Origin: Eledone cirrhosa
Taxonomy: Eukaryota
Direction of reading: 5' to 3'
Assembly: GCA_964016885.1 (NCBI GenBank)
Contig: OZ024742.1
Coordinates: 177,072,001-177,136,000 of the forward strand
DNA length: 64,000 nucleotides
Both the position numbers and the translations under genes were made by a program. The notes below the pieces were generated by a model that ran no database searches, was not told where the DNA came from, and saw only the letters and a program-made list of their open reading frames with translations. The number at the start of each line of letters is the position of its first letter. Position 1 is the stretch's first letter. Shown here one piece after another: positions 17,222 to 54,124 of the stretch.

Positions 17222-17452
17222 AGGTTTTAATATAGATGAGATTCTACAGGACTAGAACTGTTTCATTCATTAGAAATCATCAGGAATCTCAGATTTCTGA
17301 TGATTTCTAAGATTCCTGAGATTCCTGATGATTTCTAATGAATGAAACAGTTCTAGTCCTGTAGAATCTCATCTATATTAAAACCTTTATACTCTGCTAT
17401 GTATTGAGTACCTTACTTACTGTGGTTACCTCCGATTCAACCCGGAATAACG
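17222..17452. mobile_element. Miniature palindrome 2 (PLE-like by architecture): 71-bp arms 17222-17292 and 17316-17386, tail 17387-17452
   Basis: Perfect inverted arms with an HHR in each; (TA)n on both flanks; no coding sequence. Confidence 0.8.
17318..17370 (+). ncRNA. Type-I hammerhead ribozyme motif (mirror copy at 17238-17290, minus strand)
   Basis: gagattc-CTGATGA-t[ttc taat gaa]t-GAAA-cag ttctagtc ctg-TA-gaatctc. Canonical core and a 7-bp stem I. Confidence 0.85.
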
Positions 17453-18184
17453 TATATATATATATATATATATATATATACATACACGCACACAGACATT
17501 GTTTAGTCGTCATCGTCAACCAAAATTAGATTGTCGTCTGCTTTCTTTAAAATTTCTTTATATATATTTCTAATAAGTTGTTGCCTCGTTTTGGATGAGT
17601 GAGTTGTGGGAGGAGGAAGGGAATAGTGGGAGGGAGGGCTTAACATACAGTAGTAGTATGTCCACTTCCCCCTATCTCAGTGAAACGGCTTCTCTTTCTT
17701 GCTCCATTGTAAAAATGTCCCCAGGGGATCTATTATTAATTTTTTTATTGAAATCCAATTAACCAGTCCTGTTTCTGAATAGTAGCTTAACATGTGAGTA
17801 TAGATTCATCAGGATCGAATCACTCGTGTAGGCACCAACTGGCTATACACAGAGTTACACGGATACACAGACAGACACAAATTGCCATTTATATATATAA
17901 TGCCAATCATTGTAAGTTTGAATCTGACACTGCAAAAACATATATATATGAATATAGTAAGCTCAAATCATAGTAGATTCAAATATCACAGAGAGAAAGA
18001 AAGAGAGTGTGGGCGGTGAAATGAGGTGCAACAGAAACGAAATATGGATTGCAGATTAAAATATATTCTAGATAGATGAGAAACAAAACGAGGACGTAGT
18101 TTAACGGATACCCAAATGATTTAGAAGCCGACCTTAAGTAGGCGCTAGGGAAACCATTAACAAGACCACATCATTTTGTATTCA

Positions 18185-18497
18185 ATATTTTGAAAGTAGA
18201 TTTTATATGTATGCATTTTCAGTGGACTTTCGTAGCTGCTTCAGTCGAATCGTGGTAGGTACTGGAGACGGCGGAGATCCTGGTCTTGGGTTCAATCCTG
18301 GTCGAGAGGTAATTCTTTCAGATTTTATTTTACGTCCCATAGAAAAAAAATAAAAAAGGTTTACCGGGAACCATACTCCCGACCCGGATCCAATTTCAGA
18401 CCAGGATCACCACCGTCTAAGATTCCTCCAACTAGGTCGCCGAGAGAGCTACAGATGTATAATGAAAATTAATAATTATAATCCTACTTTCACAATC
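18185..18497. repeat. Degenerate inverted repeat with tRNA-like B-box arms
   Basis: 'tgaaagtag' pairs with 'ctactttca', and 'gacggcggagatcctggtct' with 'agaccaggatcaccaccgtc'. 'gggttcaatcc' is B-box-like. Confidence 0.55.
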
Positions 18498-18615
18498 AAA
18501 TTTCAAAAGATGTAGCTTTCCTAGAACTATTTGTCATATTTAGGGTCGACTTGTCAATCTTCTGGCTCCTTCGTAACAACCATTTATTTCTGCGTTTAAG
18601 TTTTAACAAAAATTG

Positions 18616-18684
18616 ATAATAATAATAATAATAATAATAATAATAATAATAATAATAATAATAATAATAATAATAATAATAATA
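18616..18684. repeat. (TAA)n microsatellite
   Basis: Perfect run. Confidence 0.95.
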
Positions 18685-18736
18685 AGGGAAGAAGACGCAC
18701 ATGGTGGATAGAAGGTCATGAAATCGCTCCCGTAAG

Positions 18737-19372
18737 TTTTTGATTTTTAACATATTTAAATGAATTGTGAAATAACAATTCTTAGTACAAATGATGCATA
18801 AAGCACCAGACTCAACTATCAGAAAAATTCGCAACCATAATAGTGTGTTATATCACTCAAATATTTAATTTTGTATTATACATTTTATATTCAAAAAAGA
18901 AAATGGTTATAAAAGGAAGAAAACCCCCTCTGTCTACACTATATAGAACAGCAAAATAACAGCAATTTCACCAACACCACAAACTAGATACACCACCTAT
19001 CCCATCACCTCTGTGTACACTAAATACAACAGCCAGATAACGGCAATTTCACCACCACCACCACAAATCCAAGCATAATAATAATAATTACTATTATTAT
19101 TGTCTCAAGTTTTCACAAAATGTTTAATTCCAATATTAAGGAAATATGTCAAAACATATATTAAACATATGCGACTAACCGCATAGATACGCCGATCAAA
19201 ATATCAAACAACTACAGTCTATTCAACAAAACTCAGTAACGACAACGCCACCACTATAGTCACCGCCGCCACCACTCCATCCATCATTGCTAGCACTATC
19301 CCATCACCGCCCACCACTCCTTCATTGCTACCACCGCTATTCCCCCATTACCTTCTGTTAACTTACGAAAGG
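18737..19372. repeat. Dispersed unclassified repeat, copy 2 (partial third copy at about 19600-19705)
   Basis: Colinear with 6825-7380, with an internal duplication near 18930-19060. Confidence 0.75.
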
Positions 19373-50819: not shown

Positions 50820-51604
50820 ACTGGCGTATAAATAATATAAGGTCAAAAGATGGTTAAAAGCGTTTCATGTATTTTATTATGCGCATTTCAAAAACAAATA
50901 TCATCATGGGATGATATTTGCGTTCTCATCACATAAAATAGGAAGACATGATATGAAGCTTAAAAAACACTTACGAGCAGTGAAGTGTTAAATCTACATA
51001 TGAAAAATAAAATAAGATGGATATGTGAGATTGGGAAAAAAAGAAGGAAGGGGGAAGGAAAAGGTAAGGAAGAAGAAGAAAGAAAATAAAGGATGACGGA
51101 GGAGAAGTATGAGAAGGTAGGATGAGAGAAGATGAGAAATGAGTGAGAGAGAGAGAGAGAGAGAGAGAGAGAGAGAGAGAGAGAGAGAGAGAGAGAGAGA
51201 GAGAGATAGTCTTTAATACTGAGAAACACTGTCTCACAGAGAGAAATTAAAAAAACGTTGTAAGATAATACATAATTTAAAAAAATCTTGAAATTAAAAG
51301 TTAATGAGGTTTATGAATGGTGATGTTTATGATTAAAGAAAAAGGAATTAAGAAAATTTAAGGAAGAAAAAATATATAACGGAAAAAAAATGTAAGGAAG
51401 AAAAAATATATAACGGCAAAAAAATATATGTTTACAAAAAAATTACTAATGGTAATATTAGTATATATTAAAATTATAGTTTGTATGGCCAAGAATATAA
51501 GGAAAATGCTATAGTTAGTAGTAATATGAGTTAAGAAGTAATTGAGAAGTAAAAGTTACAGATTAAAAATTAGAAATTAAAAATGAAAAAAGGAGAAAAG
51601 AAAT

Positions 51605-51845
51605 TGCCCTGTTAGAACTAAATGTCCTCTTAATAACCAATGTCTTGATAAAAATTTAGTGTATGAATGTAAGGTTATAACTGGTACTAATTTCTTTAGC
51701 TATTTTGGTTCCACTTCCACTTCCTTTATAGCAAGATTTTATAATCACAATTCGTATTTTAAATACCTACTTAAAAGAACTAACACGGCACTCTCAGAAC
51801 TCACATGGTCCTTAAAAGACAAGAATATTAACTACAACATATTAT
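51605..51845 (+). pseudogene. PLE GIY-YIG fragment
   Basis: KCPLNNQCLDKNLVYECKVITGTNFFSYFGSTSTSFIARFYNH is close to the palindrome-3 protein. Confidence 0.85.
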
Positions 51846-51851
51846 TACTGA

Positions 51852-51965
51852 TCTGAGTTAAAATCTCACCGAGGTTAACTTTGCCTTTCATCCTTACGGG
51901 GTCGATAAAATAAAGTACCAGTAATGTACTAGGTAATTGCTGGCCTTGTGCCTAAAATAGAAACA
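51852..51965 (+). mobile_element. SINE family A with 'attattact' target-site duplication
   Basis: Duplication at 51841-51849 and 51966-51974. Confidence 0.8.
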
Positions 51966-52680
51966 ATTATTACTAACTATAGCATTTTCCTTATATTCAT
52001 AGCCATACAAACTATATTTTTAATATATACTAATATTACCATTAGAAAATTTTGTAAACATATATTTTTTTGACGTTATATATTTTTTCTTCCGTAAATT
52101 TTCTTCTTTCTTCTCTCCTTTCGTGCTCGTATTAAACCTATTATTTACTTTTTCATATTACAATACATAGAAACAAATTTAGACCCTAACTAATTCCTCT
52201 AAGTTCATAATTCATTTAATTTCTTCTTCATTCACCTTATCTCCTTAATATTTTTATTTTAATAATACATATTAATAAATTCCCTTTCGCACATATTATT
52301 AAACCCTTCAATATATAAACCTTAAATAAATACTATTCTTAATTCCTGTATCTTTAATCATAAACATCACCATTAATTTCAATTTTTTTTAGATTATGTA
52401 TTATCTTACAATGGTTTTTTTTAATTTCTCTCTGTGAGACAGTGTTTCTCAGTATTAAAAGCTATCTCTCTCTCTCCCTCTCACTCATTTCTCCTGCTCT
52501 CCCATCCTACCTTCTCATACTCCTCCCCCGTCATCCTTTATTTTCTTTCTTCCTCTTCCTTACCTTTTAATTCCCCTTTCCTTCTTTTTTTCCCAATCTC
52601 ACATATCCATCTTAGTCTATTTTTCATTTAACACTTCACTGCTCGCAAGTGTTTTTTACGCTTCATATCATGACTCCCTA

Positions 52681-52747
52681 TTTTATCTGATGAGAACGCA
52701 AATATCATCCCATGATAATATTTGTTTTTGAAATAGGCATAATAAAA
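52681..52747 (+). ncRNA. Type-I hammerhead motif (mutated mirror copy at 50872-50938)
   Basis: ttttat-CTGATGA-gaacgcaaatatcatcccatgataatatttgttttt-GAAA-taggca-TA-ataaaa. The left copy keeps tgcgca but its core reads GTGATGA. Confidence 0.75.
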
Positions 52748-54124
52748 TACATGGAACTCTTTTAACCATCTGTTGATCTTATTCCTATATATATATATAT
52801 ATATATAGGAATAAGAATTTGAACATGAAATTTTAGTCTCTAAGAAGAATTACTTACAACGAGTTATAACTTTACTGGTTTCACTAGTTTCGTGATTTTC
52901 AAATGTTAAGTGAAATGAACAGATATGCCGCCACGTAACTTGCATCAAACTAATGTTCGAAAGTTCTTCCTGTTTTATGTAAAAAAATGTGCTTGAGATT
53001 GCTATATGTTGGAAGTACAATTTAATAGGTTGAGGAATTCGTGTGTTCAAGGGAAGTTGGAAGTGCCTTTGCTGCAATGGTAAACGTTTTTAAAAATACA
53101 GGGATTTTGCTTATGTATATCAGCGTATGTGTGTTATTTTTATTCGAATCAGATGCCAAAAAAGCTTTGTTGCACCCTGTGTCAAACTGAATATCTTTGA
53201 GACATATGGTACACGGGTCTATAGAATTATCAACGATTGCACATTTATCCATACGACCAAATTGTTTGTTTGATCAAGCAGCATGTTCGAAACCGGCGGA
53301 AGTCCCTCTCGTATTAAAATGTATTTAGCACTGGCTTCCCGTAAGGACATAGACATACAACCTGCATTTACGAATCAGCAGAAGTTGGCCAATTGTGTCA
53401 TTCCGATTAACAATATGCCTTCATTAATATAATTTCACATTGTTACAGTTGAAAACACGAAACCAATTTGAAAATAACTTTTATTCCCGGTTGTTAAATT
53501 CAGTCAATTGCACAGTATGTTAATGTAAAACTATGTATATTTCAGCTGTTACAACCAAAGGAGAGATAGCGCATTGGAAGAATTTTGAAATATTGTTAAA
53601 TAAATGTAGAAACCATAATGGTCAGTCAATTAAAAACACCTTACATTGAATCAAGTGTGTTCGTCAGTGTTAAAGGTTGCGAAAATTCGATTGTCAGAAT
53701 TAACAATTTGAAATTGGTATCTGTCAAATAATTCTCATTCCTTTCATTGAACGTCTTGTAATATTTAACAATTTATCTGGAGGGTTTAAAATATGATAAA
53801 TACCAACGAATGTAATGTCAAATCAATTTTCAACATATATTTACTTACGGCAAAATATTACGGCATATTTCATGTAAATTGAGGGTGTTGATGTAATGAA
53901 ACCTATTTTAATGACAATTTGATGCGTGTTTCAGAAATTCTTAGAAAATGTTTTCCCTACGTCTCTCAGCAATATTCTAATTTTGCAACTCGATATTTCA
54001 ATGAACATTGTCAAGGAACGTCGGCTAACTTGCCTTGTAACACTCTTCATACCAGAAATGTAATACATATCCTGATGCCATAGCACTCAGTTTAATGGTA
54101 GATATGATGTATTCTAATGGACGC

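Follow-up and report, generated by a model that had tools for sequence, protein, structure and literature searches.

The window analysed here, a 64-kb stretch (64,000 nucleotides, nt) of AT-rich, animal-type DNA from Eledone cirrhosa (contig OZ024742.1, positions 177,072,001 to 177,136,000 of the forward strand), contains numerous (TA)n arrays and eight palindromes, A to H. Each palindrome is a head-to-head inverted pair, identified by self-BLAST of the window and by reading out the junctions, and all eight are insertions of Penelope-like elements (PLEs) into (TA)n. The subject of this report is how the two arms of each palindrome end. A preliminary description had proposed that one arm keeps a 3' tail and that the other stops at an internal TA microhomology, and each break point quoted there was found in the sequence; in its numbering, A is palindrome 1, B is 2, C is 3, D is 4, G is 5, H is 6, F is 7 and E is 8. 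Palindrome A (10557-15779) falls outside the range 17222..52782 that it gave. A ninth, short inverted repeat (50369-50530) has no such tail and was left out of the count of eight.

Eight palindromes and the elements that form them

Palindrome A consists of arms at 10718-13211 and 13286-15779, preceded by a 161-nt tail (10557..10717, -) in which a bulged hairpin, hairpin 1 (10714-10678), begins 3 nt past the untailed end point. The hammerhead motif of its untailed arm lies at 15694..15732 (+), with a mirror copy at 10803-10765, and the junction at 15779 shows a 5-nt TA match. Palindrome B (17222..17452) is without an open reading frame (ORF) and has hammerheads at 17325-17363 (+) and 17283-17245 (-), an untailed end at 17222 with a 1-nt match, and a 66-nt tail (17387..17452, +), which includes a variant of hairpin 1 (17391-17412) whose outer pair is compensatory. 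Palindrome C (24591..28547) has hammerheads at 24688-24634 and 28360-28414, an ORF in its spacer (25695-26891, -) that belongs to the untailed left arm, and a 90-nt tail (28458..28547, +) with hairpin 1 at 28465-28492. Palindrome E (37664..38218) is an old relative of A, with an untailed end near 37664 and a 95-nt tail (38124-38218) that holds a degenerate hairpin (38128-38163). Palindrome H (50654..52785), a relative of C, has a hammerhead at 52687-52741 and a tail at 50836-50654 (-), which is interrupted at about 50707-50824 by a short interspersed element (SINE) and retains a hairpin remnant at 50703-50676. The SINE sits just before hairpin 1 and is accompanied by an 11-13-nt duplication.

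The three remaining palindromes are of another type. Palindrome D (30994..37441) encodes a reverse transcriptase (RT) with a C-terminal GIY-YIG domain, and has an untailed end at 30994 with a 4-nt match, a 63-nt tail (37379-37441) and a hammerhead at 31110-31081 (-), the right-arm copy of which is partly deleted, having lost 22 nt of the hammerhead core. Palindrome G (47365..47727), of the same family, has its untailed end at 47365, a 62-nt tail (47666-47727) and hammerheads at 47473-47444 and 47557-47586. In the D/G hammerhead core (47557-47586, 31110-31081), U replaces C at position 3 and A replaces G at position 8. Palindrome F (39983..41100) has a 61-nt tail (39983-40043, -), an untailed end at 41100 with a 4-nt match, and hammerheads at 40241-40207 and 40902-40936, and is without a Hydra-type hairpin.

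The assignment to PLEs is supported by protein matches, motifs and layout. A single 553-aa frame in D matches RVT_1 (E=8.6e-7) and GIY-YIG (E=2e-6), and F matches GIY-YIG (E=8e-5). For A and C, no RT or GIY-YIG match was found in Pfam; the C protein has 26 homologs, and no ORF remains in B, E or G. Translations and an alignment of A and C show a CxCX5C linker, CxxC and CxH flanking E and N, and no CCHH, and the H copy has a degenerate linker and ends before the C-terminal motifs. Homologs of A, C and H also contain RWK and DKT, which lie in the N-terminal part that is truncated in the window copies. By these motifs A, C and H are assigned to the Hydra clade, as judged from sequence; the clade as described by Craig 2021 (PMC8557442; here and below, statements about published work refer to the available portions of each paper) shares the CxCX5C linker, the CxxC/CxH arrangement around E and N, hammerheads and (TA)n targets, and the homologs supply RWK and DKT. 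DNA similarity joins E to A, and B is placed near Hydra only through its hairpin. The CX2-5CxxC linker, CCHH motif and DKG are all present in D, and F has the linker and the Cys/His pattern, which identifies D/G and F as apparent Neptune- or Nematis-type elements. Our own scan detected a type I hammerhead motif in A, B, C, the left arm of D, F, G and the right arm of H, and an alignment detected it in E; an Rfam search of the window at the gathering threshold found no match. Finally, the copies are 5'-truncated with an inverted or tandem layout, seen as eight head-to-head pairs in the window and as direct pseudo-long terminal repeats (pLTRs) in relatives. Searches of viral contigs with the D protein and with the Hydra alignment gave no matches.

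One arm of each palindrome is tailed

In all eight palindromes, one arm is tailed and the other is untailed, which has a probability of P=0.004 under an independent 50:50 choice. This is the pairing that the preliminary description had claimed, and E is its least certain case: E is an old copy with arms ~85% identical, and its junction rests on one gapped alignment because of that age. H apart, the tails measure 61-161 nt; the H tail is 183 nt including the inserted SINE and ~59 nt net. By reading frame, the spacer belongs to the untailed arm in C and H, to the tailed arm in D and F and probably to the tailed arm in A, which agrees with the earlier observation, made for C and H, that the tailed arm does not always own the spacer.

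We also compared the right arm of G with four sequencing runs from other samples (X1, X4, X5 and X17). Loose ends in (TA)n occur at 47665 in 27 X1 contigs, 2 X4 contigs and 66 X17 reads, and one X5 contig stops there; sequencing depth drops at 47665/47666 in X1, X4 and X5 and, for X17, in the reads of one direction. Half of the G stretch (47514-47626) is masked, so the depth ratios give no count of tailed to untailed copies. Because independent samples show (TA)n loose ends at this position, the D/G untailed end recurs in many copies. This recurrence, together with arms that are 80-99% alike in most palindromes and with asymmetric ends, rules out an assembly artefact.

Hydra relatives show the same pairing. 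A Hydra protein alignment retrieved 103 loci from host-derived contigs (designated by L numbers), and in a further genome, G001, 9 of 11 head-to-head Hydra candidates are tailed/untailed, a count that took in paired copies only. With the window palindromes, 17 of 18 classifiable pairs are tailed/untailed (P=7e-5), and L068 provides one additional pair of this type. Among the non-Hydra families of G001, one has two end points and one tailed/untailed pair (L256); the non-Hydra palindrome L262 has identical flanks and is uninformative on pairing.

Both ends match the (TA)n target

The untailed arms end at a short UA stretch, 23-163 nt downstream of a hammerhead in all palindromes but E, and the match to the (TA)n target exceeds chance. 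At seven distinct junctions in the window (D and G counted once), the match is 5, 1, 5, 3, 3, 4 and 4 nt, with a mean of 3.6 nt compared with 1.13 nt at random start points (P=0.001). We extended the count to 17 junctions chosen by hand, with each family and site represented once (7 lie in the window and 10 in relatives), at which the mean is 3.5 nt compared with 1.0 nt at random start points and 1.3 nt for points -15 to +5 of the junction. This mean was reached in 0 of 20000 random draws and is also above the local null, and the match is at least 3 nt at 13 of 17 junctions. The count omits L015, L065 and L032 (non-TA targets), L009, L011 and L043 (contig ends), and L067/L061 and L085/L001 (too divergent). 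D/G and F, the apparent Neptune-type palindromes, have both ends and the microhomology, and no convincing Hydra-type hairpin.

The proposal that the cut (TA)n end anneals to an internal UA site is thus borne out as to the match itself, but homology alone does not pick the site. A rule by which the best TA tract wins was rejected, as at 11 of the 17 junctions a longer TA tract is available in another part of the untranslated region (UTR) and is left unused. A fixed distance from the hammerhead was likewise rejected across clades, where it varies from 23 to 163 nt, and it roughly holds within Hydra for the untailed end, which we call site 1 (23-56 nt).

The untailed junction of H contains a perfect 40-nt mirror (52777..52816), in which the 9 nt flanking the (TA)n run on its left, read as their reverse complement, equal the 9 nt on its right. 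Six of these 9 nt match the element and 3 are extra, and H was scored above without its 3 templated bases. Among 91 TA runs, this is the only mirror that is not of dinucleotide repeats. In our reading, this single case arose when a target end folded back on itself and, after extension, annealed through 6 nt of homology.

A twin hairpin in Hydra leaders predicts both end points

In full-length Hydra copies, the leader (5' UTR) between the hammerhead and the ATG holds two tandem copies of a bulged hairpin, each composed of GCTC, a short variable stem-loop, a 2-nt bulge, GAGC and then ACT or GCT. A script found at least two hairpins before the ORF in 15 of 18 read-through leaders, of which L042 and L048 are near-duplicates; among the remaining three, L068 has two in a separate analysis, the second hairpin of L034 contains Ns and L059 has one. 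The bulge is TT in 26 hairpins, TC in 6 and TA in 5. The inner pair beside it, which played no part in the hairpin search, is Watson-Crick in 36 of 36 scored among 37 distinct hairpins (C-G 26, T-A 10); with control bulges of 0, 1, 3 and 4 nt, the corresponding counts are 0/37, 0/37, 5/36 and 6/32. The second pair is kept in 22 of 32 hairpins and includes all four pair types. Starts of the hairpin motif are concentrated after hammerheads, with 71 in the 15,300 nt that follow them and 110 in 799,512 nt overall.

The hairpins predict where copies end. Among 37 microsatellite-ended copies, 17 stop 31-60 nt past the hammerhead cut without a hairpin (at least 4 of them from non-Hydra families), 16 stop at 93-119 nt after exactly one hairpin, 4 stop elsewhere and none stops after two. 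The preliminary description had suggested examining the end points for exactly two peaks, and those of these 37 copies are bimodal. Of 15 Hydra-type junctions, 14 are followed after 1-8 nt by a hairpin arm, and the fifteenth, H, is split by the SINE. The window tails of A, B, C, E and H start with hairpin 1, which has a compensatory outer pair in B and C and is degenerate in E and H. In the A tail, additional long stems fold after hairpin 1 (10557-10677). Read-through relatives (L016, L077, L058/L083 and L013) place the tail end, which we call site 2, 2-8 nt before hairpin 2, with a TA match of 2-4 nt. The tail corresponds to a single repeat unit of the leader, comprising hairpin 1 and the spacer up to hairpin 2, and its end is therefore internal; for the window families, the internal position of the tail end is predicted from these relatives.

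These relatives bear on the two priming modes of the preliminary description, in which the RNA 3' end primes the tailed arm and internal UA annealing primes the untailed arm. The existence of two fixed end points, with each arm using one, is confirmed, as is the TA match where the untailed arm stops, and sequence past the tail end was not recovered for the window families. However, the tail end in the relatives is an internal site with its own TA match rather than the RNA 3' terminus, the account gives no reason for a duplicated hairpin, and both boundaries are internal in the in vitro work of Frangieh 2024 (PMC11167929), which leaves priming at the RNA 3' terminus very unlikely.

A second alternative is that the hairpins act as signals in DNA or cDNA for endonuclease trimming of an intermediate, and not as docking sites in RNA. 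Craig 2021 (PMC8557442) attributes the tail to endonuclease resolution, Frangieh 2024 (PMC11167929) cites the Penelope tail as needed for endonuclease recognition, and covariation cannot separate RNA from single-stranded DNA. Yet the hairpin is situated past the end point, the inserted product lacks it at that end, and the sites were mapped in vitro as RT starts (PMC11167929), so we regard trimming as highly improbable.

Short arms and the probable template

Several short arms outside the window bear on how the two arms were copied. The arms of L191 span -57 to -7 and +3 to about +52 of the leader and, because they do not overlap, neither was copied from the other. This result bears on a model in which a single cDNA is made and the second arm is a fold-back copy joined by microhomology-mediated repair. 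End-joining scars show microhomology and templated mirrors, which the TA matches and the templated H mirror resemble, and self-priming has been proposed for palindromic junctions (Arkhipova 2013, PMC3846280). The L191 arms contradict the model; furthermore, no tail can be gained by fold-back copying, yet in C and H the spacer belongs to the untailed arm, and repair would not strike one fixed pre-hairpin site in many copies. We therefore consider a fold-back origin very improbable.

The hammerhead cut is the exact starting point of two untailed arms, and one tailed arm starts at cut+2. Three tailed arms, two in L191 and one in L192, terminate at site 1 or close to it. Arms that stop at the cut and at site 1 fit two RTs on one cut RNA. 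Alternatively, two independent ribonucleoproteins (RNPs) could act on two RNAs, with an asymmetry of the complex assigning site 1 to one of them and site 2 to the other and with the hairpins still setting the sites. One L196 pair differs where its untailed arm matches other copies, long arms continue past site 1 and the hammerhead, and L190 resembles a mosaic of two families, all of which would suit two RNAs. On the other side, the short tailed arms end at or near site 1 and the short untailed arms at the hammerhead cut, as one RNA predicts, and the four arms of D and G all share one minority variant, which together lead us to regard two RNPs as unlikely. In L190 (1713-2123), the hammerhead and hairpin of one family give way to the leader and tail of a related one, which suggests template switching between families.

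Twin-site priming as a model for one-tailed palindromes

We consider it probable that the arms terminate at two fixed positions within the leader, that each Hydra site lies 1-8 bases before a likely docking hairpin, and that each cut (TA)n strand would pair with UA bases there and so prime one arm. In the steps that we envisage, each hairpin would dock one RT-endonuclease subunit, and a dimer would use both hairpins at once, probably on one RNA. Each subunit would nick one (TA)n strand, and the cut 3' end would pair with the closest UA bases, which lie a short way upstream of the hairpin, so that both target strands could be extended. Synthesis of cDNA in opposite directions would then yield one untailed and one tailed arm. 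The template may often be hammerhead-cut, in which case a jump or a circle would let the RT go on into the ORF, and the far ends of both cDNAs would be joined at the palindrome centre. More tentatively, the twin hairpin could be a code on a single hammerhead-cut RNA, with each hairpin docking one subunit of the dimer and fixing a short UA template and with the two target strands extended simultaneously, so that the one-tailed palindrome would be the primary product of double-primed transposition; this fuller account seems to us possible without being the expected outcome. Telomerase combines short-homology priming with a docking hairpin, and its boundary element may be compared with a hairpin that would fix a short UA template just upstream.

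Several observations weigh against twin-site priming. In G001, the L196 pair at 13607-17416 is untailed/untailed, though its flanks are duplicated too, the palindrome in L129 has no clear pair type, and untailed/untailed pairs are under-sampled because the hairpin search found part of the tailed arms. The 17 junctions scored for TA matches were chosen by hand, some of their families are related, and families B and F6 match by just 1 nt. The L059 leader has a single hairpin, the tails of D/G and F fold into no convincing Hydra-type hairpin, and the A tail, at 161 nt, is about twice the 50-75 nt unit of relatives. A read-through copy was not obtained for any window family, and past the G tail end just 5 contigs (0.56 agreement) and one 87-read stack continue. 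As for the template, two or three positions distinguish the arms of one L196 pair, a difference that two template RNAs would account for as well, and an uncut RNA, a jump or a circle is needed because all window arms run past the hammerhead. Finally, for the Poseidon element studied by Frangieh 2024 (PMC11167929), the RT starts share no homology with the cut DNA and the hammerhead need not cleave.

In other respects, that in vitro system resembles the model. With the Poseidon element PAc, two internal RT starts bound the tail, both strands are cut and extended, RNA downstream of the starts is required and a dimer is predicted (PMC11167929). The PAc starts lie in the ORF without homology, whereas the sites described here lie in the 5' UTR, each before a repeated bulged hairpin and both TA-matched; similarly, hammerhead cleavage is dispensable for PAc, whereas some arms here begin at the hammerhead cut. 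Hammerheads in PLEs and a circular template were described by Cervera and de la Pena 2014 (PMC4209133) and 2020 (PMC7229834), and a monomer template running from hammerhead to hammerhead would explain how an RT reaches the ORF after starting near the 5' end of the RNA. In the available text of these two papers, no start signal is proposed for the circular RNA, and tails and palindromes are not addressed.

The asymmetry itself is known in outline. Craig 2021 (PMC8557442) reports a tail of 30-40 bp, often at one end, and Hydra insertions in (TA)n, and Arkhipova 2013 (PMC3846280) reports an optional tail on one inverted pLTR, so that the inverted 5'-truncated copy beside the element, the extension at one end and the (TA)n targets of Hydra are all shared with the palindromes described here. 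The published tails are shorter and 'often' one-sided, compared with 61-161 nt and one-sided in 8/8 here. Neither a hairpin signal nor junction homology was found in the available portions of these two papers, in which the description of the Hydra clade (PMC8557442) does not mention a twin leader hairpin, and the portions available of Li 2026 (10.64898/2026.07.22.740005) and Goubert 2022 (PMC8969392) contain nothing on the hairpin. As no description of the twin hairpin or of priming homology was found in the openly accessible literature, the prediction of both ends by the twin hairpin and the homology at both appear new. The origin of the tandem and inverted PLE structures and of the tail is called 'undefined' in PMC8557442, and later steps are left open by PMC11167929. 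With a short, conserved cis-element that occurs twice and predicts both ends within a few bases, this question becomes experimentally direct, and curators gain a hairpin rule by which they could recognize the true ends of Hydra elements. The twin hairpin also suggests that short-homology priming with a docking hairpin occurs in the sister group of telomerase.

Other features of the window and of related loci

Several PLE families are nested in each other's (TA)n junctions in L191, L192 and L196. A non-Hydra PLE leader at L196 18693 (-) contains a short motif twice, ~70 nt apart, with the second copy just before the (TA)n junction, and three other non-Hydra copies (one in L060 and two in L081) end on the same motif.

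Within the window, a second copy of the SINE found in the H tail (51852-51972) truncates the ORF of the H spacer, and more copies occur at 1244, 9242, 48536, 62133 and 63129-63396. A second inversion inside palindrome C (26808-27296) has 227-nt arms, a 13-nt loop and a 32-nt duplication. The short inverted repeat at 50369-50530 is an element with terminal inverted repeats of ~40 nt and a hammerhead-core-like word, without the full motif. Finally, a 2-kb direct repeat (4214-6185 and 20183-22161), 86% alike and with broken ORFs, is probably another retroelement.

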